Shown here: positions 41,674 through 59,424 of the stretch, piece by piece
How the letters are laid out: every line of letters starts with the position of its first letter
Position numbering within the stretch: position 1 is the stretch's first letter
IMG/VR virus record: IMGVR_UViG_3300046758_000611
Location: 64,001 to 128,000 of that record
DNA length: 64,000 nt
Strand: one strand, 5' to 3'
From: a virus
Notes under the pieces: generated by a model
Databases searched by the model: none
The model's input: only the letters and a program-made list of their open reading frames with translations
What the model was told of the DNA's origin: nothing
Translations under genes and position numbers: made by a program

Positions 41674-41674
41674 T

Positions 41675-42862: not shown

Positions 42863-42898
42863 ACTTTAAGACATAAACTTTTATATACTTATAGATGA

Positions 42899-43609
42899 AT
42901 GGACTACTATAAAGTATATTTAAAAAAATTGGTAGGTGGATTTTTGTCAACTACACCGACACGATTAAAACCTGGACAGATAGTTACCTTCAAATATCGT
43001 GACGATATTCCATCGAGAAGAAAATTAAGTCGCATGATATTGGTTCTATCTAGTCGTCCAGGTAAAAACGGAAAATTGATTCATGGAATATCATTACAAT
43101 TTATACCGTGGCAATTGTTTCGGTCATTTATGCAAAAGGTTATCACATTTGATACACTTTTACTAATTCAAAGAAGACTTGAAATACAAGCACCACTAAA
43201 TGAGTTCCTAGAGAAACCTATTAGTTTTTATAGTTCATATATTAAAAGATACTTAAAAAACTATGATTGTTACAGGACATATAGTTTATCCAAAATAACA
43301 TCACCACGCATATCATGCCTTGATTACTCAACCATGTTTCCAACGGGAAAAAAAGAAGAACGTGCATTGTTAGTAAATCGTAGAGATTCACTTAGTGACA
43401 TTTTAAAAGAACGTGAAGTTATTGAAAAATTATTAAAGTCCGATGAAAAAATTTCAATTGATAACAGAAACGCAAGACGAATGATTATTAAAAGATTCGG
43501 AAGTGTAGAAAATTTCTATGACGCAGTACGCAAACTAGATTCACTGGTTGATGACAATCAGGATGTAGATGATATATACAAAAGCATAAAATCAAATATG
43601 AAAAAATGA
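42899..43609 (+). CDS. hypothetical protein, possibly T4 gp2 DNA end protector-like
   Basis: PGQIVTFKY..ILVL..HGISLQFIP..CYRTY resembles gp2-type motifs; ATACTTATA upstream. Confidence 0.45.
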   Translation: MDYYKVYLKKLVGGFLSTTPTRLKPGQIVTFKYRDDIPSRRKLSRMILVLSSRPGKNGKLIHGISLQFIPWQLFRSFMQKVITFDTLLLIQRRLEIQAPLNEFLEKPISFYSSYIKRYLKNYDCYRTYSLSKITSPRISCLDYSTMFPTGKKEERALLVNRRDSLSDILKEREVIEKLLKSDEKISIDNRNARRMIIKRFGSVENFYDAVRKLDSLVDDNQDVDDIYKSIKSNMKK

Positions 43610-44241
43610 AACCCTCAATTAGTTTTGCCATAACCACACACAATGAATTCATTCAGTTAAAAAAATCTATTGATATTATAGAGAGATTTAAAGATGATTT
43701 GGATGAGTTATTATTTTTAGATGATTTTTCTGACAACGACAAAACATTGAAACTTCTTGAAAGTAGAAACACATTTAAACGTAAATTTGAAAAAGATTAC
43801 TCGGATCATAAGAATTATTTAAATTCATTATGCAATTGTGATTATATTTTACAACTAGACGGTGACGAAATATTAAGTCAAAAACTTATCGCAAATGTTA
43901 AAAATATAATAAAAGATAATTCAGATATAGATTTATTCTATATACCCAGAGCAAACTATGTTCAGGGTATAAATAAGAGTTATCTAAAACGATGGAATTG
44001 GAAAATGGATAATAAAAAAAGAATTAATTATCCTGATTTTCAAGGCAGACTTTTCAAGAATAATGAAAAACTATATTGGCATCGTTCCGTGCATGAAAGA
44101 ATTACGGGAAATAAAAATTTTAGCAAGTTACCATTAGATAACGATCTTGATATTATTCACGAAAAGCATATTCAAAAGCAAATCGCAAACAACAACTTTT
44201 ATTCGGAAAATTACAATCGTGACTGCACAAGAAAACAATAA
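43606..44241 (+). CDS. GT2 glycosyltransferase
   Basis: ISFAITTHNE, LDDFS, LQLDGDE, YPDFQGRLF, VHE. Confidence 0.85.
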   Translation: MKPSISFAITTHNEFIQLKKSIDIIERFKDDLDELLFLDDFSDNDKTLKLLESRNTFKRKFEKDYSDHKNYLNSLCNCDYILQLDGDEILSQKLIANVKNIIKDNSDIDLFYIPRANYVQGINKSYLKRWNWKMDNKKRINYPDFQGRLFKNNEKLYWHRSVHERITGNKNFSKLPLDNDLDIIHEKHIQKQIANNNFYSENYNRDCTRKQ

Positions 44242-45892
44242 AAAAAAATTAGGCATAGTAACTTGTTATTTTAATCCACGTAACTATCTAACAAAATTTA
44301 TTAATTTTCTTGATTTCTATTACAAGTTAAGAAAATCAAAAAATGTAGATATTATTGTTGTTGAGTCTTGTATGAGTGATTCTGTTTATACATTAAAAAA
44401 CACTATACATAACAATCTTATATCATTGAATACAAATTCCGTATATTGGCAGAAAGAAGAATTGATAAATATAGGACTTAGAAAACATAAAGACACCGGT
44501 TACAAAAACTTGTGCTGGTTGGATAGTGATATTGAATTTTTAAACGATAATTGGGCAGATGTGATAATAGAAGATCTAAATGAGTATGATATAGTTCAGG
44601 TATTTGAGTATAGTCACGAAATAATTGACACTAAAGCAAACACAATAAAACATAACTCCTATATAAAAAAAATAAAAGAGGGTAACAACCATCCATTTAA
44701 AAGAATCGGTGAACTTGGTTATGGTTATGCTTACAAACGAACATCTCTTACCGATAAACTTTTATATGAAAATGCGGTAGTTGGTGGTGGTGATTTTTTA
44801 AATATATTACCATTTGTAAATATGAATACCACAATGAATATCACAGAAGATAGATATTTTAAAAACGCAAATATAGAAATGATAGATGATTACATGGATT
44901 GGTATGAAGATAAATCTAAATTAAAAACAAGTTACTCAAAAAACGAAATAAAGGTTGCGTACCACGGAGATAGAAAATTCAGAAACTATTTAAAACGAGA
45001 GCAGATTTTAAAAAACTTGAATTTTTGTCCAAAGACTGACCTTGAAAAAACAAATAATAACTCACTTAGACTTCTTAAAAATAAAAATGTAGAGAATTAT
45101 TTGAAAAAATATTTCAAGGAAAGAAATGAGGATTACTTTAATGATAATTTACAATCAAAAAGATTCTTTAAAAAAATAATCAACAGAGTGGCGTACAATT
45201 TAGATGTAGAAAATATTGAAACCGAACCTATGCTACGCACGGTTGAAAAAATAAAAAACCACGAAAATAAAGTACAAAAAAATAATAATATAGATATAAA
45301 ACTAAATAGAGTATGTGTTTGGTCTAAAAATAATATTAAAGAGATAAATGTAAGTTCCTTTGATTTTATGCAAAACATAATATACGATAAATCAGATAGA
45401 CATCAAATAAATTCTATAAAGTGCAATCGTAGTGATAGATTTCCACATACATATTTAAAATTCATTATTAGTAATTACGAAAATCTTCCAAGTGTGGTTA
45501 TATTCTGTAATGATTATATTGAACAATCGTTTATATTAAGTACGATCAGCATACTTAGAAACATACCAAACGATGAAAACTTAAAGTTTACACAAATCAT
45601 AGAGTGCAAACAACCAGTGCGATTGGATACATCTGGTCATATTTTAGGACTTTACAAAAAAACCTCTGTAAAGAAAAGTAAACATACATTCCAAGAATGG
45701 AATCGTTATCATTGTAATAAAGAAAAGGAAGGTAGCGATTTTTATGTTTATCCAATTTTTTATTTAGGAAGAAACATTATACAAAACAAAAAAATAGAAT
45801 ACTACGAAAACCTGTTAAGTAGTATATCGTCAGACTCACTTACCGAAGACGAACTTTATCTAAACCGCAGTTGGGACAACATATTTCAATGA
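44219..45892 (+). CDS. GT-A glycosyltransferase fused to DUF3431-like domain
   Basis: WQKEELINIG, WLDSD, GGGD; HTYLKFIISNYENLPSVVIF; in-frame GTG at 44219 taken as start. Confidence 0.65.
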   Translation: MTAQENNKKKLGIVTCYFNPRNYLTKFINFLDFYYKLRKSKNVDIIVVESCMSDSVYTLKNTIHNNLISLNTNSVYWQKEELINIGLRKHKDTGYKNLCWLDSDIEFLNDNWADVIIEDLNEYDIVQVFEYSHEIIDTKANTIKHNSYIKKIKEGNNHPFKRIGELGYGYAYKRTSLTDKLLYENAVVGGGDFLNILPFVNMNTTMNITEDRYFKNANIEMIDDYMDWYEDKSKLKTSYSKNEIKVAYHGDRKFRNYLKREQILKNLNFCPKTDLEKTNNNSLRLLKNKNVENYLKKYFKERNEDYFNDNLQSKRFFKKIINRVAYNLDVENIETEPMLRTVEKIKNHENKVQKNNNIDIKLNRVCVWSKNNIKEINVSSFDFMQNIIYDKSDRHQINSIKCNRSDRFPHTYLKFIISNYENLPSVVIFCNDYIEQSFILSTISILRNIPNDENLKFTQIIECKQPVRLDTSGHILGLYKKTSVKKSKHTFQEWNRYHCNKEKEGSDFYVYPIFYLGRNIIQNKKIEYYENLLSSISSDSLTEDELYLNRSWDNIFQ

Positions 45893-46746
45893 TTATTTTA
45901 TCAATACATTTATTTCCATTTGAAATGAAACGATTCCAACGAATCGTTAATTCAATAAATTTAAATTTAAAATATACGAGATGTGAAGAACTACTCGTTC
46001 ATGCTACTCTAAATAAAAATTCTAATATTCTTGAACACGAGTATGATGTTGACGAAGTCTTCATCAATCTTATGAAAACTATAAATTGCGATGTATTTTA
46101 TGAAATCAAAAACGAAGTAAATTTTTTAGGAGTAAATGAACATAGACGAAAAACCATACAACTATCAGACAAAGATGATTACATCATTTATATAGATAGT
46201 GATCTTATATTCAACGACAGAATACTAGCAAATCAAATTATTGCAATAGATTATTTAAAAAACAAAAATGACTACTTTATAGTAACCCCAAATACAATTA
46301 GATTGTGGGATAAAACATGGGATATAATTACACATGAAAAGTACCTAACTGAATCATTTGAATTCCACAGAAACGCAAACTTTTACGATATAGTAAATCA
46401 AAACTATGGAAAAATATATCTAGAGAAAATAAACAAATTTAAATGGGGTGGGGGGTGGTTTAATTGTTTTTCAGCAAATCTGCTTAAATTGATAAAAATC
46501 CCAACTTCATTTAAAGGTTATGGGCCAGATGACACATTTGTCATGGAGTGTTGTAATATATTAAAAAAAGAAGGAGAGAACGTATCACAATATATTATGA
46601 AAAACATGATTGTATGTGAGGATATAAAAATTGATTCAAAAAAATATTTCAAGAAAAAAACAAAAAATTTCAGAGAATTGTGCAATAAAAACTTTAATAA
46701 AGAGTTATCAAATTTTTATATTTCTTATAAAAAAGAAATAATTTAA
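45889..46746 (+). CDS. GT-A glycosyltransferase
   Basis: YIDSD, GGGWF, FKGYGPDDTF. Confidence 0.7.
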   Translation: MIILSIHLFPFEMKRFQRIVNSINLNLKYTRCEELLVHATLNKNSNILEHEYDVDEVFINLMKTINCDVFYEIKNEVNFLGVNEHRRKTIQLSDKDDYIIYIDSDLIFNDRILANQIIAIDYLKNKNDYFIVTPNTIRLWDKTWDIITHEKYLTESFEFHRNANFYDIVNQNYGKIYLEKINKFKWGGGWFNCFSANLLKLIKIPTSFKGYGPDDTFVMECCNILKKEGENVSQYIMKNMIVCEDIKIDSKKYFKKKTKNFRELCNKNFNKELSNFYISYKKEII

Positions 46747-46757
46747 TATATATGTGT

Positions 46758-47555
46758 ATGAAGAAACGGCAAATTTTAACATTTGTGGTGGTGAGTTTAA
46801 CTTTAACATTTACACAGGGTTGTGTAACAATTCCCTGGGGGTTGAAAGATGACAGAATTAAAATCAATTCTGACATAGAAAAAAAAGACACAGAACTTAG
46901 CCGTCATCTTAAATCTTATGTAACAGGAACTGTTGAAACACTGTCGTATGTAGATAATAAAAACAAAACACAACAAGTTGCATTAAATTTAGCACAAAAG
47001 GCACAAGAAATTGTAGGACTCCCAGACCCAGGGGACAAAATCAATGTAATTGATGTAATAAACAAAAACGGAGTTGCACTTGAGAACCTAGAAGACAGAA
47101 ATGCAGATGTAATAAGTTTATCTAGGCAAAAACAGGTCCTAGGACATGAACTAAGTGACACAGAAGATAAACTCATAGAACTGGGTGAGGCATCGAGAAC
47201 AGAAGATAATTTTTTTGCAAAAGCATGGGGTTGGTTAAAAACTACATTTGGCATATTAGGTGCAATTGCTATATTAATAATTGGAGGTCCTGCAATTTTA
47301 CCTATTTTGGGGCAAATAATTGCGTGGGTAGTTACAAAAATACCAGGACTTGTAGGTTGGATGGGTCTTACGAGTTTTTCGTTAACAAAGAATATTATCA
47401 AGGGAGTGCATGATGCAAAAGAAAAAATAAAAATGGCAGACGAAGAACGGAAGTTTTCAAAGAATGAAGTTCTTGACTTATTTAAATCAAATCTTGGCAA
47501 CTCAACAAACCACTCCGACAAGAATATAATCAGCAGAATAAAAAGAAAGTTCTAA
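46758..47555 (+). CDS. lipoprotein with internal transmembrane segments
   Basis: MKKRQ + hydrophobic stretch + TQGC lipobox; FGILGAIAILIIGGPAILPILGQIIAWVV. Confidence 0.65.
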   Translation: MKKRQILTFVVVSLTLTFTQGCVTIPWGLKDDRIKINSDIEKKDTELSRHLKSYVTGTVETLSYVDNKNKTQQVALNLAQKAQEIVGLPDPGDKINVIDVINKNGVALENLEDRNADVISLSRQKQVLGHELSDTEDKLIELGEASRTEDNFFAKAWGWLKTTFGILGAIAILIIGGPAILPILGQIIAWVVTKIPGLVGWMGLTSFSLTKNIIKGVHDAKEKIKMADEERKFSKNEVLDLFKSNLGNSTNHSDKNIISRIKRKF

Positions 47556-48181
47556 TGAAAGAAATACTTGTAGAGAATAAAAAATTTAAAGGTGATCCAG
47601 AAAAATTTAAAGGAAGTCGTGACGATAACGCACTTGGGTTCGGCTGGAGGCCTGGTCAGGAAGAAACAACAATAACTATAAATAATTGCGAAATAGATGC
47701 TAACGGAGTAGCAGAGGGTCTTAAATTAAGTTATTGTAAAAATGTAAAAGTTACCAATTGTACAATAATAGGTGGGTACGAAGATTGCGTAGATATTGTG
47801 CGTGGTTCAAATATAGTATTTCATAAATGTAAGTTTATAGCAAATAACACAAAACATCATTTCACAATAAAGTGTAATGTAGATGGTGTTAAAATAATAG
47901 ATTGTGAATTTATAAATGAATTTAATAATATATTAGATGGTGCTTGCGTTGATTTAGGAAACTGGGGAGATTATGATGTGGACATACTTCCCAAAACAAA
48001 GAACATAGAAATTGTAAATTGCAAATTAACAAATTTTAGAAAATTTAAAAAAATCATAACAAGAAGATTATATGCAGAAACACCGTGTGTAAAAAGTGAA
48101 GGGTTTGCACTTAATATTCCAAAAATCTTTGTTTCTTTGTTTTTTTCATATAAAAGGTTTGAAAGTAAACAAAAAAAATAG
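47555..48181 (+). CDS. right-handed parallel beta-helix protein
   Basis: ITINNCEI, NVKVTNCTIIGGYEDCVDI, NIVFHKCKF, GVKIIDCEF repeats. Confidence 0.7.
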   Translation: MKEILVENKKFKGDPEKFKGSRDDNALGFGWRPGQEETTITINNCEIDANGVAEGLKLSYCKNVKVTNCTIIGGYEDCVDIVRGSNIVFHKCKFIANNTKHHFTIKCNVDGVKIIDCEFINEFNNILDGACVDLGNWGDYDVDILPKTKNIEIVNCKLTNFRKFKKIITRRLYAETPCVKSEGFALNIPKIFVSLFFSYKRFESKQKK

Positions 48182-48243
48182 TTTTCTTTATTATACTTAT
48201 AAAAAAGGTTATATCGCATTATTAAACATGGAGATTGCGTTAT

Positions 48244-49119
48244 ATGAAAATAGGAGTTGTGGGAAATGGGTTTGTGGGTCATGCAATGACATTGCTGAGA
48301 CCTTATGTGGATGTACTTGTGTGGGATATAGTTCCAGATAAAAGAGATCCACAAACATTAGATATTGAAACGTTTGTAGAAGAGTCGGAAATAATTTTTG
48401 TTGCCGTTCCCACACCAATGAATTCAGACGGAAGTGCTAATTTAAATATAGTAAGAGCAGTTTGCGAAGAAATTCAAGCAATTGATGATGAAAAATATAT
48501 TGTACTTCGTTCTACTGTACCACCCGGAACAAGTGAAGAATTAGATGTAGCATTTATGCCAGAGTTTCTTACTGAAAAAAACTGGAAGGATGATTTTAAA
48601 AATTGCAATCAATGGATACTTGGTTCAACCGATCCATTCTTATATGAAAAAATGAAAAGAATGTTTGAACTTGCATATAATGATGGAAATGGTGCGATTG
48701 TAAACAAAGAATTAATTCAATGCAAACCAAGTGAAGCAGAAATGATAAAATACTTGAAAAATGTATTTTTAAGTGTAAAGGTCGGTTTCTTTAATGAACT
48801 TGAATCAATTTGCTCAGAGATGGACATTAATTATGAAAATGTTCGTTGTATTGCAACAGAAGACCCTAGAATTGGAAACGGACACACAAAAGTTCCCGGA
48901 CACGATGGTCTTCGTGGATTTGGGGGAACGTGTTTTCCAAAAGATACGAATGCACTTGCAAACTTTGCAAATGAAAATTTCGTACCAACTCCTATACTTA
49001 ATGCAGTTATTAAACGAAACGAAGAAGTAGACAGACCTGAAAAAGACTGGATGGCAGACAAAGGGAGAGCAGTTTCTGCTGAAGTAAATCCCAACGAAAA
49101 GAAGAAAAAGACAACATGA
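48244..49119 (+). CDS. UDP-glucose/GDP-mannose dehydrogenase family protein (short form)
   Basis: IGVVGNGFVG, FVAVPTP, RSTVPPGT, PEFL, GFGGTCFPKD. Confidence 0.88.
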   Translation: MKIGVVGNGFVGHAMTLLRPYVDVLVWDIVPDKRDPQTLDIETFVEESEIIFVAVPTPMNSDGSANLNIVRAVCEEIQAIDDEKYIVLRSTVPPGTSEELDVAFMPEFLTEKNWKDDFKNCNQWILGSTDPFLYEKMKRMFELAYNDGNGAIVNKELIQCKPSEAEMIKYLKNVFLSVKVGFFNELESICSEMDINYENVRCIATEDPRIGNGHTKVPGHDGLRGFGGTCFPKDTNALANFANENFVPTPILNAVIKRNEEVDRPEKDWMADKGRAVSAEVNPNEKKKKTT

Positions 49120-50072
49120 AAAACATTGACTTCTTCAATGGAGATGCAGACGGAATAATAAGTCTACATCAGTACCGATTATTCTCACCGACTGATAGTG
49201 AATTATTTACTGGTGTTAAAAGGGATGTTAAACTTTTAAGACATTGCGTTGGGGTTAAAAACTGCAACTTAACGGTATTTGATGTATCACTATTATCTAA
49301 CATAGAATATGTAAAACAAATATTAAAAAAGAAAAATAAAATAAAATGGTTTGACCATCATGAACCGGGTGAAACAAAGTTAGGAAAAAACTTTTCAATA
49401 AAAGTAGACTCCGATCCCAATTGTTGTACAAATATATTAGTTGATAAATACATAGACGGGTTACACAGACCCTGGACAATATGTGGTGCGTTTGGAGATA
49501 ATTTACACGAACAGGCAGAAAAACTAAATCCTTGTTTTGACGAGCAGACAATGAATAAGTTAAAAGAAATTGGAGAAACACTAAATTACAATGGATACGG
49601 AAACAAAGAGTCTGATTTAACTGTACACCCAAAAAACGTATACCTTGATTTAAAACAATATGAATCACCGTTTCGTTACAGAAGCAAATCAGAAATATAC
49701 AATAAAATTTATACACAAATGAAGTCTGATGAAAAAGAACTAAATTCATCCGAAATTTTACATGAAACAAAAACAGGGAAAGTCATTTTGCTTCCAGACA
49801 CAAAAGCATCCATTAGGTACTCTGGTATATACAGTAACCAACAAACAACCGATAATCCCGATAAAGCATTTGCAATTCTTACATTAACAAACAATGATAA
49901 TTACCGAATAAGCATAAGGTCACCAAAAAACAATCCATACGGAGCAAGCAAGTTGGCATTGAGTTTTCCAACAGGAGGTGGTCGTGAAAAAGCAGCCGGT
50001 ATAAACGAATTACCAAAAACAGAACTTAAAAAATTTATTGAAACATTTGAAAATATTTATGGAAATGAATAA
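49116..50072 (+). CDS. DHH/DHHA1-family phosphoesterase
   Basis: NGDADG, FDHH, GGGREKAAG. Confidence 0.8.
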   Translation: MKNIDFFNGDADGIISLHQYRLFSPTDSELFTGVKRDVKLLRHCVGVKNCNLTVFDVSLLSNIEYVKQILKKKNKIKWFDHHEPGETKLGKNFSIKVDSDPNCCTNILVDKYIDGLHRPWTICGAFGDNLHEQAEKLNPCFDEQTMNKLKEIGETLNYNGYGNKESDLTVHPKNVYLDLKQYESPFRYRSKSEIYNKIYTQMKSDEKELNSSEILHETKTGKVILLPDTKASIRYSGIYSNQQTTDNPDKAFAILTLTNNDNYRISIRSPKNNPYGASKLALSFPTGGGREKAAGINELPKTELKKFIETFENIYGNE

Positions 50073-50196
50073 ACAAAAAAAAGTATTTATTAAAACAAAA
50101 AAACCTAGTATAATATTCCTTAATAAATCAATAAATTATAAACAACCAACACAAACTGAAATATCTAAACAAGATTTAGCGGATAGGTGGGGATAG
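50065..50196 (+). CDS. small basic hypothetical protein (43 aa)
   Basis: MNKQKKVFIK...DLADRWG fills the gap between two operon genes. Confidence 0.4.
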   Translation: MNKQKKVFIKTKKPSIIFLNKSINYKQPTQTEISKQDLADRWG

Positions 50197-50199
50197 ATT

Positions 50200-50571
50200 A
50201 TGAGAAATCAAGATGAAAGTATAAGACCTTGGGGAAATTATGAAATTCTATTAGACGCAGAATACTGCAAAGTCAAACGTATCTTTGTAAAACCAGGACA
50301 AAGATTAAGTTATCAATACCACCACAAACGACAAGAAGCATGGACGGTTGTTAGTGGTGTTGCGAGAATAACTTTAGACGATGTCACAGAAGATTATAAA
50401 CCAGGAGAAACGGTTTTAATTCCTATTGGAGCAAAACACCGCATGGCAAATCCAAGTGGTACAGAAGATATGATTTTAATTGAAGTTCAAACAGGAACTT
50501 ATTTTGGTGAAGATGATATTGTCAGAGTCCAAGATGATTATGATCGTCCAGAAAAACACGAATCAAATTAA
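50200..50571 (+). CDS. mannose-6-phosphate isomerase type II C-terminal cupin
   Basis: RPWGNY, KVKRIFVKPGQRLSYQYHHKRQEAW, IEVQTGTYFGEDDIVR. Confidence 0.9.
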   Translation: MRNQDESIRPWGNYEILLDAEYCKVKRIFVKPGQRLSYQYHHKRQEAWTVVSGVARITLDDVTEDYKPGETVLIPIGAKHRMANPSGTEDMILIEVQTGTYFGEDDIVRVQDDYDRPEKHESN

Positions 50572-50575
50572 AATT

Positions 50576-50983
50576 ATGAAAACCGTAGCAGTTAGTGGAT
50601 ACTTTGACCCAATTCATGTGGGTCATTTAGAATATCTTGAGTTGGCAAAAAAACTTGGTGATCGTCTTGTTGTTATTGTAAACAACAATCATCAATGTGT
50701 TCTTAAAAAAGGCAAACCATTTATGGATGAAGCAGACCGAGTAAAAATCGTAGAAGCACTCGGAATAGTTGATGAAGTTTTTCTCAGTATCGATGGAGAC
50801 AAAAGTGTATGTGCTTCTCTTGATGCAATTAAACCCGACATCTTTGCAAATGGTGGAGATAGAAGCACAGGTGAAGTACCCGAAAGTGTTATTTGCAAAA
50901 AGCATGGCATTGAAATGGTCGATGGACTTGGTGATAAAATTAGAAGTTCAAGTGATTTGACTGGCTTAAAAGAAAAGAAGTAG
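50576..50983 (+). CDS. HIGH-family cytidylyl/nucleotidyltransferase
   Basis: SGYFDPIHVGH, FANGGDR, KIRSSS. Confidence 0.88.
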   Translation: MKTVAVSGYFDPIHVGHLEYLELAKKLGDRLVVIVNNNHQCVLKKGKPFMDEADRVKIVEALGIVDEVFLSIDGDKSVCASLDAIKPDIFANGGDRSTGEVPESVICKKHGIEMVDGLGDKIRSSSDLTGLKEKK

Positions 50984-51002
50984 TTCCTATCTATTTATTT
51001 GT

Positions 51003-51908
51003 ATGAATAAAGTCTTGATAACGGGTGGTGCTGGTTTTGTTGGAACTGCACTTATACGCAAACTTATACGAAAGTACAAGAATATTCAGATCATCAGCAT
51101 TGACAATTATAGTAGTGGATTTGAAAGCAATCATATAAAAAGTAAAAAAGTAACGTATCTTAATAAGGATACTCAAACTTTGATTCCGAAAAAATTTGAT
51201 GCAAACAATACCAAGATGGATATTGCAGATGCCTTCGAACCAGATGTTGTCTTTCACTTCGGTGAGTTCTCACGAATCGTAACGAGTTTTGATGCGTTTG
51301 ATAATTGTTGGGACTATAATATGCAAGGAACTAAAATGGTTCTTGATTATTGCGTAGCAAAAAAGGCAAAGTTAATTTATAGTGCAAGTTCAAGTAAATT
51401 TGGAAACGATGGCAAAGACGAAAATCTTTCTCCATATGCTTGGATGAAAGCAAAAATGGTTGAACTTATTAAAAACTATTCAGACTGGTTTGATTTAAAA
51501 TACGAAATAACATACTTTTACAATGCGTACGGTCCTGGACAAGTAAGAACAGGAGATTACGCAACCGTGATAGGAATATTCGAAGAGCAATATTCCAAAG
51601 GAGAACCACTTACAGTTGTAGAACCAGGTGAACAATCAAGAGACTTTACCCATGTTGATGATATCGTAAATGGAGTTGTGTTAGCAGCCGTCAAAGGTCA
51701 ACAATGTGAATATCCACTTGGAACAGGAATTCCACACAAAATAATTGATGTTGCTAAACTGTTCAATCATAAACATATTATGATACCAGAAAGACGTGGT
51801 GAGAGATTCTACGGAAAAGCAATTCCATCTCTAACCTACCAACATCTTGGTTGGAACGCAAAAATTAAACTAGAAGATTATATCAAAAAAATAGTTGACG
51901 CCAAATAA
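51003..51908 (+). CDS. NAD-dependent nucleotide-sugar epimerase/dehydratase
   Basis: TGGAGFVG, YSASSS, YAWMK (YxxxK), YNAYGP, RDFTHVDD. Confidence 0.9.
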   Translation: MNKVLITGGAGFVGTALIRKLIRKYKNIQIISIDNYSSGFESNHIKSKKVTYLNKDTQTLIPKKFDANNTKMDIADAFEPDVVFHFGEFSRIVTSFDAFDNCWDYNMQGTKMVLDYCVAKKAKLIYSASSSKFGNDGKDENLSPYAWMKAKMVELIKNYSDWFDLKYEITYFYNAYGPGQVRTGDYATVIGIFEEQYSKGEPLTVVEPGEQSRDFTHVDDIVNGVVLAAVKGQQCEYPLGTGIPHKIIDVAKLFNHKHIMIPERRGERFYGKAIPSLTYQHLGWNAKIKLEDYIKKIVDAK

Positions 51909-51923
51909 ATTTGTTTATATAAT
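51895..51923 (+). promoter_or_regulatory. near-consensus sigma70 promoter of the four-gene modification operon, leaderless
   Basis: TTGACG-17-TATAAT, 6 nt before ATG 51930. Confidence 0.75.
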
Positions 51924-51929
51924 ATATAG

Positions 51930-53216
51930 ATGAATTTTAGAAATGTTGAACTTGAATATCCTAAGCCGTTTCACAACGGAAAGAAGTGGGTCTATGCGGA
52001 TAGTCCAATTTACGACAACTTATTAAATTGCTTTTGGGAAACACAACATCCAGAAGACTCATATAAAGATTCACCTAGATTACGTGATCCGTTTAGAAAA
52101 ATAAACAATATGACGAATCAGAAACTTCTTGGTCATAAAGAAGATACATACGAAAAAGTTGATTGGGTGGAAGATGAAAATGGAATTATTCGTGCTTGTA
52201 TTTTATATTTTGATATTCCAAAAATGCACTCTAAGAAAAAGAAAATAGTAAGTTTTACAGGTCGTGAAATTACTTTAAGTGCAAATGATGCGTATATTCA
52301 AGAAGTTGCTTGCTATCCTGGTTACGAAGAATGGTTAGGTAAACTAATTAAAAAGCACGAAGCAAAAGGAAACTTCTTTGAAGAAGGAGTTACAGTCATT
52401 GAATGTGATATGCAACTCAAAAGAATTCGTGAACTTCTTGCATCTATTGGTTATACACGAAAAGATAATCTTATCAGCAGTTTCGCAGATATGTATGGAT
52501 TTTGGTTTAAAGGTGGTGAATACCCACACATAGATCCTGCACAAGAAATTGCCTTACAAAGATTAGCAATGCCGGGTGTTCCAAATCCTAAGAAAATCAT
52601 GGAACAATTAAATAAAGTAAGTTCCGAGTTTTCTAATCATTATTCAAATTACAATAAAAGTGATTCGTGGTCAGGAGTAACAGTATCTGGTTATGGAGGC
52701 GAATGGGATTTTATTATCAAACCAAGTGAAATGAACAACAAGTGGAAAAAGAATAATTCAGAGAAATTAAAATGGAAAGTAGAAGATACTCCACTTCGTG
52801 CAAAACTACCTGCCGTAGAAGAATATTTAAAACTTCTTCCTTATGAATTTGAAAGAATTAGAATTCTTAAACTTGCTGGTGGTGAGGGAGAGTTACAACG
52901 ACACACAGACCGTCAAGACAAAGAAGCAGGTATTTCGGACAACCAATGGGCAAGAGTTCATTTTCCAATTCAAACAAATCCAAAAGTACAATTCACACTT
53001 TGGAACACAGACGGAACAAAAACGGTTGACAAAATGAAAGAAGGAGAATTGTGGTATCTTGATATGAGGAAACCACATACTGCATTTAATGGTGGATCAC
53101 AGGATCGTTATCATCTGGTTGTTGATTTAAAAGCAAATCAAAACTTTAGAGATTGGTTGGTTGAAAGTAGCAAGTTGTATCCACCCACCAAAGATGCTGA
53201 CAATTATATTGAATGA
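51930..53216 (+). CDS. possible GNAT-like N-terminal domain fused to an Asp/Asn beta-hydroxylase-type 2OG-Fe(II) oxygenase
   Basis: RIRILKL..QRHTD (HxD), RVHFPIQTNP, GELWYLD..PHTAFNGG..RYHLVVD; GNAT guess from AYIQEVACYPG..LASIGY. Confidence 0.7.
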   Translation: MNFRNVELEYPKPFHNGKKWVYADSPIYDNLLNCFWETQHPEDSYKDSPRLRDPFRKINNMTNQKLLGHKEDTYEKVDWVEDENGIIRACILYFDIPKMHSKKKKIVSFTGREITLSANDAYIQEVACYPGYEEWLGKLIKKHEAKGNFFEEGVTVIECDMQLKRIRELLASIGYTRKDNLISSFADMYGFWFKGGEYPHIDPAQEIALQRLAMPGVPNPKKIMEQLNKVSSEFSNHYSNYNKSDSWSGVTVSGYGGEWDFIIKPSEMNNKWKKNNSEKLKWKVEDTPLRAKLPAVEEYLKLLPYEFERIRILKLAGGEGELQRHTDRQDKEAGISDNQWARVHFPIQTNPKVQFTLWNTDGTKTVDKMKEGELWYLDMRKPHTAFNGGSQDRYHLVVDLKANQNFRDWLVESSKLYPPTKDADNYIE

Positions 53217-53683
53217 AAATTTCAGAAGAACGACTGCAAACTATGTATGAGTTAGCAGGTTTAAATAAACAAACTCTACATGATGCTCTTCGTATCATGG
53301 GAAAAAAGCATCTTAAAACAAAGTTGATGAAAGAAGGATGGACACACGACAATCCAACTAAAAACTATTGTTATGTAATTGCAGAATTTGTTTATTATTA
53401 TTTATCACCAAGAGGGTCTAAACCATATAAGTTACCTGGCATACCAGGAGACGATGGATTGCATCGTTTTATTATGTGGCCAGATTATTCTGTTGTGGAT
53501 TTGGCAGTTGACCAATTTCCTAATTTTGAAGATGTAGATTATACAAAAGCAAAAATATGCTATTTTATGGTAAATACATTCGGAGTACCTGGACCATCAA
53601 AACGAACAAGAATTTTAGCAGAACTCATGGGATATGAGTTATCAGAAGAACGAGCAATTAAAGTAAATACAAAATCATGGTAA
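53213..53683 (+). CDS. hypothetical protein with candidate Cys-His-Asp (papain/transglutaminase-like) triad
   Basis: NYCYVIAE, LHRFI, VVDLAVDQF. Confidence 0.55.
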   Translation: MKISEERLQTMYELAGLNKQTLHDALRIMGKKHLKTKLMKEGWTHDNPTKNYCYVIAEFVYYYLSPRGSKPYKLPGIPGDDGLHRFIMWPDYSVVDLAVDQFPNFEDVDYTKAKICYFMVNTFGVPGPSKRTRILAELMGYELSEERAIKVNTKSW

Positions 53684-54504
53684 TGTTATCAAAATTTATA
53701 GAATCAGTATACGAAGACAACACAGGTAATATGTGGAGTGAAGATCAATTGTTAAATTTGGTTAAAGATTGGGAAGACCCAAATCCAAAACCTATTATTA
53801 TGAACTACGAAGGAATTGATGTGGTTAGAGATGATCTTCTAAATCACGGTAGTAAAATTCGTTTCGTAGATAAACTTATTCGTGAAACTTCTGCAAAAGA
53901 AATTGTATTTGGGTGTTGCCCTGCAACAGGTTATGCACAAATATCTTTACCAGCAGTTGCACAGAAATACAACAAAAAAGTTGTATTGTTTATGGCAAAA
54001 CGCAATCCAGAAAACTATCATGAATATCAAAAAAGAGGAATGGACTTGGGTGCTATATACGAGTGGGTAAATATGGGAATGTTATCAGTTACAAAATCAA
54101 GAGCAAAAAAATATGTAGCAGAGGACCCAGAAAATAGAATGGAATTTCCAATCGGATTAGAACACCCAACGGTTGTAGCAAGTATTATTAAAGTTGCAAG
54201 AAATGCTTTATCCGAAAATCCACCAAGTGAAATTTGGAGTGTTGGATCAAGTGGAACAATTAGTCGTGGTTTACAACTTGCTTTTCCTGAGATACCTGTT
54301 AATGTAGTATCTGTTGGACACAAAATGAACGAAAGAGAAATAGGACGAGCAAAATATTACAGATCAGAATATCAGTTTGATAAGGCAATAAAGGAAAATG
54401 AAATGCCACCATTTCCATCTGCCCCAACATATGATGCCAAAGCATGGAAGTTTGTAAAAGAACACGCAAAAGAAGGTGCTTTGTTTTGGAATGTAGGTGC
54501 ATAA
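53683..54504 (+). CDS. PLP-dependent enzyme, fold type II (Trp synthase beta/ACC deaminase-like)
   Basis: VVRDDLLNHGSKIR (PLP lysine), WSVGSSGT, PTYDAKAW, FWNVG. Confidence 0.8.
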   Translation: MLSKFIESVYEDNTGNMWSEDQLLNLVKDWEDPNPKPIIMNYEGIDVVRDDLLNHGSKIRFVDKLIRETSAKEIVFGCCPATGYAQISLPAVAQKYNKKVVLFMAKRNPENYHEYQKRGMDLGAIYEWVNMGMLSVTKSRAKKYVAEDPENRMEFPIGLEHPTVVASIIKVARNALSENPPSEIWSVGSSGTISRGLQLAFPEIPVNVVSVGHKMNEREIGRAKYYRSEYQFDKAIKENEMPPFPSAPTYDAKAWKFVKEHAKEGALFWNVGA

Positions 54505-54505
54505 T

Positions 54506-56095
54506 ATGAAAAAATACTTTTATGAAAAAAACAATCTTGCGGAATGTAGAGTCAATATAACATTCCACGAACTTCTTCAAAAGAATGGAAAAGAATTAGA
54601 AGAGTGGATTGATGAACTTAGAAACTATATTGTTGAAACTTGGGATAACGAAGGTCTTCCTCCGAGAACTGGTAAAAACGAAAAAGACATCATAGCAAAT
54701 TTAAATAAGTTATCAGGATATAATGTATATAAGTTTCAACACACAGACGAAATGGACGGAACAAATACCATCATTAAAAACTTTAATAAGTTCGCAACTG
54801 TGGTTGATCAGTTTTTTCCAACGATGCTTAAAACTAAAATAGGTTCTAGTAAGCATACATCTTGGAGTGTATATGATTGCTTTGCTAATCCAGAGAAACG
54901 AGAAAGTTTCCACACTTGTATGAGAAGAACGGTCCGACGAGATTCATTTTATGCTCACGGAAGAACAATCAAGAAAAATGATTATGATGTTCCGTGTCCA
55001 ACTGAAAACGCAGAAGAGTGGGTTCGTAATTTTGTCAAAGAGAAACATCTACATCCATATAACGACTTTTGGATTATTGAGTTGTTTACAGAAAAAAAGT
55101 TTGATTCATATGAAGCAAGCAGTTTAATGTTAACGGCAAAGCAAATCAAGAAATTATACAAAGAAGGTTTGCTTAAATTAAACAACATTAGAAATTTAGA
55201 AAGAACTGCAAACTTCGGTGACGATATAGAAAATATAAATGATGTAATTATCGAAGACGAAAAAGAAGTACAATTCAAATTCAGTATTCGTTACTACAAC
55301 AAGAACTCAAGAATCTTTCCGTCAGCAATGGAAGCATTTAAACTTGGTCTTAGTCAACCAGCAGTAAACTTTCCTCCGTTGACTGCAAAGTATATTTATC
55401 AGACGTACACAGATCACATTCAAGATAAAAGCAATCTTCATATATATGATCCAAGTGCAGGTTGGGGTGGACGTATTCTAGGTGCTATGTCAGTACACGA
55501 TAGACAAATTCATTATATAGGAACTGATCCAAACACAGACAATTATATAGATGAACTAAATCAAAGTCGTTATGAATATCTTGCCGACTTCTTTAATGAC
55601 AAAACAAACGGAGGTAATCCGTTCTTTGGTCATCGTAACACTTACGATGTTTATCAGAATGGAAGTGAAGAAATTCACAAGAATCCGAGTTTTCAAAAAT
55701 ACAAAGGTAAACTTGATTTGGTTTTTACAAGTCCACCATATTTTAATCGTGAACAATATTCAGCAGATGAATCTCAGAGTTTCAAAAAGTTTCCAGAGTA
55801 TGAAGATTGGAGAGACAACTTTCTTCGTCCTACTTTGAAGACGGCTGCCGAGTATTTGAAGAACGATAGATATCTACTTTGGAATATCGCAGACATCGCA
55901 GACGGAGACGGATTTATGCCATTAGAAAAAGATAGTCGTGATATTCTTGCGGAATATGGACTTGAGTATGTTGAAACTCTTAAAATGCTTATGACAACAA
56001 TGCGTGGTGTTAAAGCAGAAACGGTTAAGAATTGTTGCAAGATAAACGGAGAGTTGCAAAAGTATGAACCTATCTTTGTGTTTTACAAGAAGTAA
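54506..56095 (+). CDS. DNA amino-methyltransferase (N4-C/N6-A type)
   Basis: motif I YDPSAGWGGR, YIGTDPN, motif IV FTSPPYF. Confidence 0.82.
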   Translation: MKKYFYEKNNLAECRVNITFHELLQKNGKELEEWIDELRNYIVETWDNEGLPPRTGKNEKDIIANLNKLSGYNVYKFQHTDEMDGTNTIIKNFNKFATVVDQFFPTMLKTKIGSSKHTSWSVYDCFANPEKRESFHTCMRRTVRRDSFYAHGRTIKKNDYDVPCPTENAEEWVRNFVKEKHLHPYNDFWIIELFTEKKFDSYEASSLMLTAKQIKKLYKEGLLKLNNIRNLERTANFGDDIENINDVIIEDEKEVQFKFSIRYYNKNSRIFPSAMEAFKLGLSQPAVNFPPLTAKYIYQTYTDHIQDKSNLHIYDPSAGWGGRILGAMSVHDRQIHYIGTDPNTDNYIDELNQSRYEYLADFFNDKTNGGNPFFGHRNTYDVYQNGSEEIHKNPSFQKYKGKLDLVFTSPPYFNREQYSADESQSFKKFPEYEDWRDNFLRPTLKTAAEYLKNDRYLLWNIADIADGDGFMPLEKDSRDILAEYGLEYVETLKMLMTTMRGVKAETVKNCCKINGELQKYEPIFVFYKK

Positions 56096-57841
56096 TTAAA
56101 TAGAACTTGAAAAATCTACTCGGTCTACATCAACTCCGAAAAATTTCATAAGTAGTCTAATTGCTTTTTTACCTTGTGCTACTATAAAGTCAAATGCAGC
56201 GGATATAGCATCTGACACCCATTTCCATGCTTTTTTCAAAACTTCCATAGTTGAATCTTTAAGTTTCTTGAATCCACCTTTTACGTTATCGACACCCTTT
56301 TTTAATAAATCAGTTGCATCACTAAAAAAACCTTCACACATCAATAACCTAAGAGAGTTAAACAATTCCATTTCATTTAGATTTTGGAAATTTTCATTTA
56401 ATACTTTATTTCCACCATCCACTTTATTAAATGCTTCTTTCATGATTGTAGAAAACGTTGGTATATATTTTACTCCATCCTTTTCCTCGGCAAGTCGGTT
56501 CACGGCAGACTCAGCTGCTTTCTTTGCAGTATCAGCTGCTTTCATAATATTACCACGCAGAGCAATATATGGAGTTGATCCAGAACCTGTTTTAAACGAA
56601 GCATAAAAGTGACACTTTGATGTCAAATCACTTAATCCTGCTTCGATATCAAAATACTTAGTAACTTTACCAGAGGGAGGATCAAATTCTACAATCGTAT
56701 CAGCACGTGAATCAGATGCAGTACCGAACTTAACATCACCCGAAGCAGCCTCAAACACAAATGCTTCTTTTAATTTAGGATTACTACTAAACTCTTGATT
56801 CAGATTCAACGTAATTACATTTCCTGCCTGTGTTGCATCTTCAACATCTTTTATTTGGTTTTGCATATCTTCAAGTTCTTTTAAAGCTTGTGGTGATCCA
56901 TCGTCTTTTAGTTTTTTTACTTTATCTTTGAATGCATCAATCGTTCCTTTATATCCTGATTTGCTTGTATCAAGCACCCCCGTTTTCAAAGTATTAAAAA
57001 CTTTTTTTAGTTCTGAACTTTCGTTTTCCCCAAATTTTTGGAAAGCAACCTCAAGTGTAGCAAATGCTTCAATTCTTTTGGCACTCATAATTTGAGAACC
57101 ACCTTTCTTTTTCAATGAAATTCGTTGACCACGATCACCCTTAACATCAGTTTTGGGAGTTTTACTTGGTTTATCTTTTTTACCTGCATCTGTGAATATT
57201 TTTGACCACTCGGAACTAACAGGAGCACCCCCCTTTCCACCTCCAATTTGTTGTAAAGCTCCTATTCCCTCTTTAAGAAATGCGTCTGCGAGGTTATTTG
57301 CCTGATCTCTAAGACCAGCCGAACCCCAAAATCCTTTATCGTTAATGCGTTTCCATTCATCTGCATATTCACCACTTGATAAATCTGCATTTTTGTTTTT
57401 CTTAAACGCAAGAGCAACTGCAATCATTGCTTCCCAATCTTCACCAGAAGGTTTCTTTGCACCCTTTACGGTTGACAGATCATTGAATGCTTTTCCTATG
57501 TATGCAGGAACTACACCGAACAGTTGATTTATCTTTCCTTTTTTATTACCCCAATCAACCAGATCATCTTTGTTGTTTGCTTTTAAAAGTTCTGCTTTCA
57601 TTTGTTTCCACAACTTTTTATCTTTAATCTTTAACTTTTTGTTTTTGTTATCTCTAAGATCATTTGAATCTACTTTTGAAATAAACATTTTCTTGTTATC
57701 TCTATGAGAATCAATAGTAAACAGAGTTGCCAATCCACCAAGACCACCATTTTTATCAGATGCTTCGTTTAGTAACTCGGCAAAATCTGTCGGAATCTCA
57801 ACCAAAGATGAATTCTTTATATAATGCTCTATAATGTCCAC
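56096..57841 (-). CDS. hypothetical protein with PD-(D/E)xK-like motif, possibly head-packaged
   Basis: KTPKTDV..ISLKK; GTG start 3 nt after ATATTTATT. Confidence 0.6.
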   Translation of the reverse strand: MDIIEHYIKNSSLVEIPTDFAELLNEASDKNGGLGGLATLFTIDSHRDNKKMFISKVDSNDLRDNKNKKLKIKDKKLWKQMKAELLKANNKDDLVDWGNKKGKINQLFGVVPAYIGKAFNDLSTVKGAKKPSGEDWEAMIAVALAFKKNKNADLSSGEYADEWKRINDKGFWGSAGLRDQANNLADAFLKEGIGALQQIGGGKGGAPVSSEWSKIFTDAGKKDKPSKTPKTDVKGDRGQRISLKKKGGSQIMSAKRIEAFATLEVAFQKFGENESSELKKVFNTLKTGVLDTSKSGYKGTIDAFKDKVKKLKDDGSPQALKELEDMQNQIKDVEDATQAGNVITLNLNQEFSSNPKLKEAFVFEAASGDVKFGTASDSRADTIVEFDPPSGKVTKYFDIEAGLSDLTSKCHFYASFKTGSGSTPYIALRGNIMKAADTAKKAAESAVNRLAEEKDGVKYIPTFSTIMKEAFNKVDGGNKVLNENFQNLNEMELFNSLRLLMCEGFFSDATDLLKKGVDNVKGGFKKLKDSTMEVLKKAWKWVSDAISAAFDFIVAQGKKAIRLLMKFFGVDVDRVDFSSSI

Positions 57842-57867
57842 GACAATAAATATATATCAAAGTAGAT

Positions 57868-59424
57868 TTATTGTATTCTTTCGGGATAATCTGTAAATAC
57901 ACCATTTACACCCAACTCACGCAAATATCTAATAGCACGAAGTTCATTCACGGTATATACATATATTTTCATGTTATTTTCATTACAATACTCAACGATG
58001 GGTGGTGTAATATCTTCTATATACAAATTTACAGAATATATATTTTTTTCAAAGTAGTCTTTCTTAAAATTCTTTATGTCTCTCAGTATGACATTATCTT
58101 CGTGAAATAATTGGGACACATTAATATCGGAATCACTTCGTCTTATCAAATTGACGGTTGCACAACTAAACGAACTTAATACAATATCAACATTCCTCCA
58201 TTGTTTCTTTTTTTGATAATCTCTAACAATAGCAACAATATTAGTTGCAATGCTACTATCCTTAACTTCAATATTAACACCACACCTTCCATCTATGCAA
58301 TCCAATGCTTGTTGCAAAGTGGGAATTCTTTCACAATTAGCATAAATTAATTTATCAAATTCATGTGATTCCAAATCACTCATTTTTTTATCTACACCAA
58401 ACATTCTATTTGCATTGTAATCGTGAAATACACACATTTTCCTATCAATATATTGAACATCAAATTCAATCATATCACAATTATATTCAATTGCTTTTTC
58501 AAACGCAGAAAGTGTATTTTCAGTGCAAGTGCCACTTGCCCCACGATGAGCAATATTAACAAACTTATACTCTTCTATTTCCGAAAAAAATTGTTTTATT
58601 TTACAAAACACACTACATTCTAACCCCTTGTCATAAATTGTAAGATGTGTATTTAATTTTGTTGTATATAATTTTTTGTATGTTGATGCAATCTTTTTGA
58701 AAGCACGAACACCACTACTATAAAAGACAGTAGGATCATTATATTCTTGTATTTGAAACACAGGACACAGAATTCTATCTAATATAGTTTTAGAAACATT
58801 AGACATTTTACGAAGTTCATTTGTTGCGGACAAATTAATTAGTGGTTGATTTAGTTCAGGCATCTCACTATGATTCGTAATACACTCAAGCATTATTTTT
58901 TGTAGATTAAATTTCTTACAAATTTTATTGTAAATCATGACACCTGGTAAAAGTTTATTGAATACATTTTTAACCCCAAACGGGCAATTAATTAAAACCA
59001 TACCCGCAAATCTTACATCTTTTAAAGTAGACACATAAGCACCCACACAACCACCAAGTGAAAATCCTATAAAGTAAACTTTATCACACTCATTAGAAAC
59101 TTTTTCATATTTACTTTTTACGTCATCTACCCAATCATTCCAAGTCACTTTTGTAATATTATCAGAATCGTATCCGTGACCACGCAATTCAACAAGATGA
59201 GTATCCCATCCGAAATTTTCAAAAACAAAATCACTAAGAGGGACCATTTGTTCGTGCTTTGATAAAAAACCATGACACAAAATAACCCCAACTTTTTGAG
59301 TTGAGGTTTTTTTGACCTTCTTTGATGAAATGCTTTTTTGCATTTCATTTTCCATGCACATATTGTTGTGTTTGCAACTTATTGGATATTTACATTCTTT
59401 TTTTGTGCATTTTTGTGATTCCAT
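57868..59424 (-). CDS. alpha/beta-hydrolase (lipase/carboxylesterase) fused to glycerophosphodiester phosphodiesterase
   Basis: CHGF, LRGHG, GFSLGG, NDPTV, TH; IAHRGASG..ENTLSAF..IEFDV..VFHD..NIEVK..YTVN..GVFTDYP. Confidence 0.85.
   Translation of the reverse strand: MESQKCTKKECKYPISCKHNNMCMENEMQKSISSKKVKKTSTQKVGVILCHGFLSKHEQMVPLSDFVFENFGWDTHLVELRGHGYDSDNITKVTWNDWVDDVKSKYEKVSNECDKVYFIGFSLGGCVGAYVSTLKDVRFAGMVLINCPFGVKNVFNKLLPGVMIYNKICKKFNLQKIMLECITNHSEMPELNQPLINLSATNELRKMSNVSKTILDRILCPVFQIQEYNDPTVFYSSGVRAFKKIASTYKKLYTTKLNTHLTIYDKGLECSVFCKIKQFFSEIEEYKFVNIAHRGASGTCTENTLSAFEKAIEYNCDMIEFDVQYIDRKMCVFHDYNANRMFGVDKKMSDLESHEFDKLIYANCERIPTLQQALDCIDGRCGVNIEVKDSSIATNIVAIVRDYQKKKQWRNVDIVLSSFSCATVNLIRRSDSDINVSQLFHEDNVILRDIKNFKKDYFEKNIYSVNLYIEDITPPIVEYCNENNMKIYVYTVNELRAIRYLRELGVNGVFTDYPERIQ

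Follow-up and report, generated by a model that had tools for sequence, protein, structure and literature searches.

Hypermodified bases in phage DNA defeat restriction and CRISPR nucleases, and they supply chemistry for DNA labelling. To our knowledge, all enzymatically understood amino-acid-derived phage hypermodifications start from 5-hydroxymethyl-pyrimidines. The closest described systems are the pathways of phages M6 and ViI to 5-(2-aminoethyl)-2'-deoxyuridine (5-NedU) and 5-(2-aminoethoxy)methyl-2'-deoxyuridine (5-NeOmdU), in which phage gene clusters decorate a DNA base after replication with the participation of a fold-II pyridoxal 5'-phosphate (PLP) enzyme (PMC8989533). Purified M6 gp52 and ViI gp226 were reported by Lee et al. 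(2021) to decarboxylate amino-acid:nucleobase conjugates in DNA, and K36 of gp52 was proposed as the aldimine lysine (PMC8989533). Pathways of this type also include tailoring enzymes such as acetyltransferases; gp48 of PaMx11 is listed as the acetyltransferase of a thymidine hypermodification pathway (PMC8989533). Here we describe a four-gene module (P0001 to P0004) of a T4-like marine myovirus, located in a window of 64,000 nucleotides that comprises bases 64001-128000 of the 170 kb IMG/VR virus record IMGVR_UViG_3300046758_000611 (CheckV completeness 84%). A gp52-type PLP step in phage DNA hypermodification is known; what is new in this module is the proposed entry through a methylase-fold enzyme, together with the oxygenase and thiol-enzyme partners. 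On balance we lean towards the reading that the module makes a DNA modification larger than a methyl group, for which both the methylase-fold and the PLP enzyme would be needed.

The module consists of the following features, given in window coordinates.

51895-51923, plus strand: promoter-like site TTGACG-17-TATAAT, sigma70-type, the best match of the region.
51930-53216, plus strand: P0001, 428 amino acids, a predicted GNAT fold followed by a 2-oxoglutarate (2OG)-Fe(II) oxygenase of the AspH/proline-hydroxylase type.
53213-53683, plus strand: P0002, 156 amino acids, YunG family (PF24585), with conserved C53, H84 and D96.
53677-54504, plus strand: P0003, 275 amino acids, fold-II PLP enzyme, PHROG 7093.
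54497-56095, plus strand: P0004, 532 amino acids from a GTG start or 529 from an ATG, predicted amino-methyltransferase with motif I and TSPPY.

An earlier note on this DNA (the original prediction) had claimed four tightly coupled, co-directional genes, and the coordinates and junctions of the open reading frames (ORFs) agree with it. The P0001/P0002 junction is an ATGA overlap at 53213; P0003 may start with the ATG at 53677 or with its third codon, the ATG at 53683, which forms a TAATG with the P0002 stop; and P0004 may start with the ATG at 54506, one base past the P0003 stop, or alternatively with the GTG at 54497. The preset test of the original prediction was conserved co-occurrence of the four genes, and this is what the neighbourhood survey found. 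All four are present in 12 of 12 close viral loci, where the flanking genes differ, and their order is M-O-Y-P in seven of the twelve as opposed to O-Y-P-M (M, methylase; P, PLP enzyme; O, oxygenase; Y, YunG protein). The catalytic residues are kept in all four module proteins. Among 87 viral loci, PLP and methylase genes lie within 7 kb of each other in 69, the oxygenase is present in 39 and the YunG protein in 20, many of the PLP-only loci ending at contig edges. Thus the four genes are one functional unit that moves together.

The same linkage is visible in gene fusions. Methylase, oxygenase and PLP domains are joined in P0007 and P0021 (1081 and 1138 amino acids); oxygenase, YunG and PLP domains in P0008 (794 amino acids), with an overlapping methylase gene directly upstream and mercury-resistance genes alongside; methylase and PLP domains in P0009 (537 amino acids), P0016 and P0022; and YunG and PLP domains in P0011, P0015, P0023 and others. 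Minimal systems consist of methylase and PLP domains alone. In the Erythrobacter phages ZS04 and R6L, the PLP domain is inserted between motif I and the CPPY motif of a ParB-methylase of 812-830 amino acids encoded beside the terminase genes; the ZS04 gene (L001:2326-4764) contains a complete gp52-family PLP domain and a ParB-like N-terminus, and a gene resembling 3'-phosphoadenosine 5'-phosphosulfate reductase is located upstream of it. The 830-aa ORF1 of vB_EliS-R6L was called only a CcrM-like DNA methylase in the 2017 paper on this phage, the PLP domain being unmentioned. A CcrM-like DNA methylase is also what the deposited annotation calls this protein. In Microcystis phage Mae-JY30, the two are separate genes, the ParB-methylase first and the PLP enzyme second. 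These three phages are the cultured carriers of the methylase-PLP core; the surroundings of the ZS04 and Mae-JY30 genes yielded no homologue of YunG. The core is also found outside ordinary phage surroundings: one methylase-oxygenase-PLP fusion lies in an island with serine recombinases. At L117:381-4216, a two-gene module, in which the methylase gene overlaps a gene for an oxygenase-YunG-PLP fusion, adjoins MerR, MerT and heavy-metal-binding genes, which suggests carriage on a non-phage mobile element.

The relatives of the module, close and distant, come from marine metagenomes. A pattern scan of IMG/VR with a 12-sequence PLP alignment (A4) found at least 573 loci encoding a PLP relative, and a search of 1.84 billion representative proteins with P0003 gave 1072 matches at E ≤ 0.001, many of them long. 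Among 185,579 prokaryote species, one genome each, only nine loci were found, all of them in metagenome-assembled genomes. By clustering of neighbour genes, the module of most T4-like loci is bordered by gp46/gp47, UvsW and UvsY and, at its opposite end, by gp45, gp44/62 and RegA. At the DNA level, the 4.2 kb module stretch had no match in the phage collection.

The enzyme that connects the module with the M6 and ViI pathways is P0003, which is firmly identified as a fold-II PLP enzyme. It matches phrog_7093 with E 6.7e-40 (residues 42-275 to profile positions 13-279), and M6 gp52 itself is a core member of this group (E 2e-159). P0003 has three landmarks: K60, which forms the Schiff base and lies in GSKIR, a phosphate-binding SSGT loop, and the tail PPFPS..YDAKAW..LFWNV. 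Across 40 diverse sequences of the family these landmarks vary little or not at all, and there is no variation at K60, R62, G85, G193 (in the SSGT loop), R197 and N272. Alignment of the P0003 family profile with gp52 by hhalign gave a probability of 98.8 and E 4e-17 over 220 columns that include the lysine and the C-terminal tail, and K60 (GSKIR) falls opposite K36 of gp52 (FSKIR). By hmmsearch, gp52 scored E 1.9e-18 at the size of the PDB search, compared with 3e-6 for the best solved fold-II enzyme; matches of the profile to the PDB were of partial length and fell on O-acetylserine sulfhydrylase/cysteine synthase, serine dehydratase and TrpB. In 50,697 phage genomes searched at a lax threshold, the best matches of P0003 were three methylase-linked genes, followed by M6-like phages, where the M6 gene concerned is YP_001294560 (gp52). 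Thus both the assignment of P0003 to fold II and the analogy to the M6/ViI enzymes drawn in the original prediction are sustained, the latter as true homology. P0003 is a full-length member of PHROG 7093, the gp52 family of DNA-tethered amino-acid decarboxylases, and the same activity is predicted for it. Beyond the phage loci, a standalone family member of 234 amino acids is encoded on a bacterial metagenome contig (L021:6001-6705; phrog_7093 E 1e-34).

The second half of the core is P0004. Its C-terminal domain has motif I (DPSAGWGGR) ahead of motif IV (TSPPY), and TSPPY is the classical signature of N4-cytosine methylases. The domain matches Pfam N6_N4_Mtase (PF01555) with E 5.5e-5 and 23.6 bits, below the cut-off of 26.7; in the genome scan, the PF01555 match on this gene reached 26.4 bits, or 27 with neighbouring in-frame matches. 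It also matches phrog_12517 and phrog_498, annotated as 'DNA methyltransferase'. In alignment A3, the residues D49, G53, W54, R57, D75, P76, S143, P144 and P145 are invariant, including S-adenosylmethionine (SAM) motifs I and II. The profile of the methylase family finds DNA methylases in the PDB, namely 2zie, M.BseCI and N4C methyltransferases, with E from 1e-5 to 7e-4, and M.BseCI aligns collinearly from motif I to motif IV. Profiles were needed here, single-sequence PDB searches with P0002, P0003 and P0004 having given nothing useful; NCBIfam gave nothing above noise for the four module proteins. The N-terminal region of about 270 amino acids belongs to no recognised family in Pfam, and an Atlas feature search gave no usable named match for it. 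Overall, there is good evidence that P0004 is an enzyme of the amino-methyltransferase fold whose nearest solved relatives are DNA N6A/N4C methylases, and transfer to DNA is predicted for it. The amino-methyltransferase with an SPPY motif claimed in the earlier note is thus supported by motifs and profile matches, with a borderline Pfam score.

Additional methylase copies occur both in this phage and in related lineages. A paralogue of the P0004 domain (409 amino acids, E 2.7e-54 to the family profile) is encoded 8.5 kb downstream on the plus strand and shortly past the window's last base, at G000:C1:128628-129854, equivalent to 64628-65854 in window coordinates. In other lineages, a second methylase copy is found in or beside the module: in L016 (431 amino acids), L006-L008, L025 and L028.

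The known route by way of 5-hydroxymethyl-2'-deoxyuridine (5-hmdU) was searched for in the whole 170 kb record. Neither the 5-hmdU DNA kinase (query M6 gp54), distant homologues of which could escape such a search, nor the amino-acid:DNA transferase aGPT-Pplase (query M6 gp51) had a match at E up to 1. The dUMP hydroxymethylase of the thymidylate synthase family (PF00303) had no match in the record, the control having found it in 10 of 14 named genomes. The original prediction had reported the kinase and the transferase as not visible in the window; their absence from view is now extended to the record, and to the hydroxymethylase as well. No match to speD (PF02675) was found in the record either, and therefore no phage-encoded source of decarboxylated SAM is seen, with the possible exception of P0003 itself. 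Since the 5-hmdU enzymes were undetected and an amino-methyltransferase-fold enzyme is present instead, the target is probably an exocyclic amine of cytosine or adenine rather than C5 of thymine.

These observations can be combined in a tentative scheme, in which the four genes would form one early-expressed module for DNA base hypermodification. P0004 would flip out a cytosine, as TSPPY suggests, or an adenine, and alkylate its exocyclic amine. The group transferred would bear an amino acid and would not be, or not only be, a methyl; the simplest candidate is the 3-amino-3-carboxypropyl arm of SAM. The attachment is ascribed to the methylase-fold enzyme because no other attaching enzyme was found and because the minimal systems consist of methylase and PLP domains. 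P0003 would then decarboxylate the tethered amino acid, leaving a cationic aminopropyl side chain; in an alternative order with the same product, SAM would be decarboxylated first and the aminopropyl group then transferred, as by spermidine synthase. The oxygenase half of P0001 may hydroxylate the side chain, the GNAT-fold half of P0001 and P0002 may add or remove an acyl or amide group, and the product would shield phage DNA from host nucleases. DNA is taken as the substrate because of the DNA-methylase relatives, the association with ParB and terminase, and the location in the replication block. There is precedent for the chemistry: the aminocarboxypropyl or aminopropyl arm is moved by two enzymes of the methyltransferase fold, TYW2 and spermidine synthase, and a side chain of this kind is hydroxylated in wybutosine by the 2OG oxygenase TYW5 (JmjC). 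What we infer is that DNA is the substrate, which group is transferred and to which base, in what order the steps occur, and what the modification does for the phage. The specific version, in which cytosine N4 or adenine N6 of DNA receives the SAM arm, which is then decarboxylated and tailored, is put forward as a possibility of rather modest likelihood. A literature search found no paper on the methylase-PLP pairing or on aminocarboxypropyl modification of DNA.

Among the tailoring candidates, the C-terminal half of P0001 is firmly identified as an AspH-type 2OG-Fe(II) oxygenase with a double-stranded beta-helix fold. Residues 232-401 pass the cut-off of Pfam PF05118 (Asp/Asn beta-hydroxylase; E 1.1e-9, 38.8 bits against 22.6), and the sequence matches include PDB 4p7w, L-proline cis-4-hydroxylase and a beta-hydroxylase from the pathway to a nucleoside antibiotic. 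The iron facial triad H325-x-D327...H383 is invariant in alignment A5, which covers homologues down to 28% identity. In the AlphaFold model of P0001 (mean predicted local distance difference test, pLDDT, of 84), two domains are seen, 1-197 and approximately 201-420. The oxygenase domain superposes on 4p7x with a VIA Z-score of 15.2 (root-mean-square deviation, rmsd, 3.3; 185 residues aligned), on AspH with Z 15.1 and on 7v4p with Z of about 15, and Foldseek gave E 6e-11 to 4p7w. Residues 1-197 resemble many GNATs in VIA comparisons (Z 10-11.3, rmsd 2.9-3.6, 135-159 aligned) and, by Foldseek, SpeG (E 6e-5), so that this half of the modelled protein is assigned to the GNAT fold from the fold alone; an Atlas feature search with it gave no usable named match. 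The hydroxylase of the original prediction is therefore established by its Pfam score, invariant triad and fold, whereas its possible GNAT stands as to fold, with no canonical coenzyme A (CoA) loop in evidence.

P0002 is a small protein of the YunG family: its own match to Pfam YunG (PF24585) has E 0.014 and 16 bits, below the cut-off of 27, and many of its relatives are recorded as PF24585. In alignment A1, H84 and D96 are invariant and C53 is present in at least 90% of the sequences; in the model (pLDDT 88.5), a helix begins at C53 and a strand at H84. A Foldseek search of the PDB with this model gave nothing at E ≤ 0.001, and in an exhaustive VIA scan all Z-scores were at most 4.0, the best being SseI (Z 4.0, rmsd 3.1, 87 aligned). 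The VIA list consists mostly of Cys-His-Asp enzymes: the deamidases SseI and OspI, protein glutaminase, pseudomurein isopeptidases, LapG, transglutaminases and arylamine N-acetyltransferases. From the model, P0002 is probably a minimal thiol enzyme resembling transglutaminases or arylamine N-acetyltransferases. The papain/transglutaminase-like triad protein described in the earlier note is retained as regards the conserved Cys-His-Asp residues, and the match of its fold is weak. A literature search on YunG returned surname matches only.

Several of our own observations weigh against a DNA adduct built by the four proteins together. With Z-scores no higher than 4.0, the Cys-His-Asp thiol-enzyme fold of P0002 is suggestive, not proven. 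In the GNAT-fold half of P0001, no acyl-CoA pyrophosphate-binding loop (Q/R-x-x-G-x-G/A) is evident after the strand 121-128, and the stretch that follows this strand is poorly conserved or gapped in the fused homologues of A5. The L021 homologue of P0003 lies in an ordinary bacterial setting (GatCAB, RuvX, an MFS transporter) with no methylase nearby, and therefore the PLP family has cellular members. At 84% completeness, the record does not prove that the phage lacks the 5-hmdU genes. Homologues of the P0004 domain that have no PLP partner, in Mammaliicoccus, Bacteroides and Vibrio phages, share its G(W/F)GxR and SPPYF core, and comparison with them by eye revealed no mark of a non-methyl transferase in P0004; given this shared catalytic core, plain methylation by P0004 is also possible. 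Moreover, PLP-family members are partnered with methylases of at least two subfamilies, which have the cofactor in common, a pattern that would also fit a role on SAM or S-adenosylhomocysteine (SAH) rather than on a DNA adduct.

The last two points lead to the strongest of the alternatives, in which P0004 is an ordinary methyltransferase producing N4-methylcytosine or N6-methyladenine, the only mark on the DNA is a methyl, and the PLP enzyme, oxygenase and thiol enzyme are helpers acting on the cofactor, for example in SAH removal or in decarboxylation or elimination on SAM/SAH. The invariance of SAM-binding motifs I and II would suit this scheme, and SAM and SAH, like the substrates of gp52, are alpha-amino acids with a nucleoside-ended side chain. 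However, it leaves unexplained why the fused polypeptides include a Cys-His-Asp enzyme, a GNAT-fold domain and a hydroxylase of amino acids; the genome already has four or five further N6/N4 methylase-like genes for plain methylation; and amino acids tethered to DNA are the substrates of those members of the PLP family that have been assayed (PMC8989533). We regard cofactor helpers as an unlikely explanation, to which we would give about one chance among five.

Somewhat less likely still is a module whose target is not genomic DNA and which acts on RNA (mRNA or the tRNAs of the phage itself), on a small metabolite or on a free nucleotide; its methylase-fold enzyme would then transfer aminoalkyl or methyl groups to RNA or small molecules. 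Amino-methyltransferases of RNA and protein have (D/N/S)PPY motifs as well, there are weak matches to HemK (E 0.015) and RsmC (E 0.17), P0004 has an N-terminal region of 270 residues to which no function is assigned, the phage has a tRNA array, and the oxygenases closest in structure to P0001 have free amino acids or an intermediate of a nucleoside antibiotic as substrates. Against this, the best profile matches are DNA methylases, with M.BseCI collinear; the ParB domains carried by distant members of the paired methylase family occur in relatives that adjoin terminase genes; the module of most T4-like carriers is inside a block of DNA replication and recombination genes; and the characterised PLP-family relatives act on DNA (PMC8989533).

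Directly upstream of the module, at 40411-51908 on the plus strand, are genes for two GT1 and one GT2 glycosyltransferases, a beta-helix protein, a UDP-glucose dehydrogenase, a DHH-like protein, a mannose-6-phosphate isomerase-type cupin, a cytidylyltransferase and an NAD epimerase. That the module belongs to this sugar cluster, tailoring polysaccharide, lipid A or a virion glycan in the manner of LpxO, is suggested by the adjacency on the same strand and by the presence of lipid A hydroxylases in PF05118, and is nevertheless very improbable and was rejected, since the adjacency is not conserved in the neighbourhood survey, the relatives having the module elsewhere (mostly gp46/47-gp45, or mobile elements beside mercury-resistance or recombinase genes) and the oxygenase being fused to methylase and PLP enzymes, not to sugar enzymes.

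The promoter TTGACG-17-TATAAT that the original prediction placed ahead of the operon is indeed there, as a candidate judged by its sequence. It is the sole 11/12 match in the 11.5 kb of 47000-58500, where promoter-like sites as a class are at their chance count (53 observed against 48 +/- 7 expected) in AT-rich DNA. Five relatives (L004-L008) retain both hexamers with a diverged spacer, and the L016 lineage has a perfect TTGACA-17-TATAAT ahead of its module copy (L016:3560-3590). The putative -35 hexamer TTGACG falls within the last part of the coding sequence upstream. Between the -10 hexamer and the start codon there are only 6 nt here (51917-51932) and 9 nt in L016, and therefore the module mRNA would be essentially leaderless, lacking a Shine-Dalgarno sequence, if these sites are used.

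The source virus is a T4-like marine myovirus: the record encodes a gp6-type baseplate wedge and PhoH, eight tRNA genes form an array, and structural genes occupy a long stretch of the minus strand of the window, the GC content of which is about 33%. Inside the structural block, a single ORF of 3511 amino acids extends over 8793-19328 on the minus strand. Downstream of the module, 56096-57841 is occupied by a gene of 581 amino acids that has no family match and is 30-99% identical among close relatives. It is followed, convergent with the module, by the gene for a protein of 518 amino acids, in which an alpha/beta-hydrolase (lipase/esterase) is fused to a glycerophosphodiester phosphodiesterase, at 57868-59424 on the minus strand.

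If the preferred reading of a larger-than-methyl DNA modification is true, the module that makes it spans hundreds of marine T4-like phages, other phages and mobile elements, and the DNA of the carrier phages may hold a base that affects sequencing, restriction-based methods and the ecology of host defence. Should its side chain derive from the SAM arm, this would be the first aminoalkyl base of such origin in DNA.

Among known systems, Mom of phage Mu can be likened to the proposed module by description, as its N6-carbamoylmethyladenine is a larger-than-methyl anti-restriction mark on an exocyclic amine and the enzyme has a GNAT fold. However, Mom acts without a methylase-fold, PLP or oxygenase partner, whereas the GNAT-fold domain described here is fused to an oxygenase and shows no evident CoA loop. 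The wybutosine pathway and spermidine synthase follow the same logic as the proposal, transfer of the amino-acid or aminopropyl arm of SAM to a nitrogen or carbon of a base or an amine, and then 2OG hydroxylation of the side chain, the shared folds being the extent of the homology seen; in contrast to the proposal, their substrate is tRNA or a polyamine, not DNA, and they have no PLP step. The orphan N4C/N6A methyltransferases of phages, including the ParB-methylases encoded by the terminase genes, share motif I and TSPPY with P0004. They differ from it in the obligatory coupling or fusion of P0004 to an enzyme of the PLP decarboxylase family, which in some proteins is nested inside the methylase, after motif I and before motif IV; a hydroxylase and a thiol enzyme are frequent further partners. 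The closest parallel is with the M6 and ViI pathways. Compared with them, the kinase, aGPT-Pplase and dUMP hydroxymethylase are undetected here, and the partners of the PLP enzyme are instead an enzyme of the amino-methyltransferase fold, a 2OG oxygenase of the AspH type and a thiol enzyme of the YunG type. The module thus appears to keep the PLP trimming enzyme of these pathways and to swap their front end for a methylase-fold enzyme, which would constitute a second, previously undescribed entry route to DNA hypermodification, probably through an exocyclic amine.

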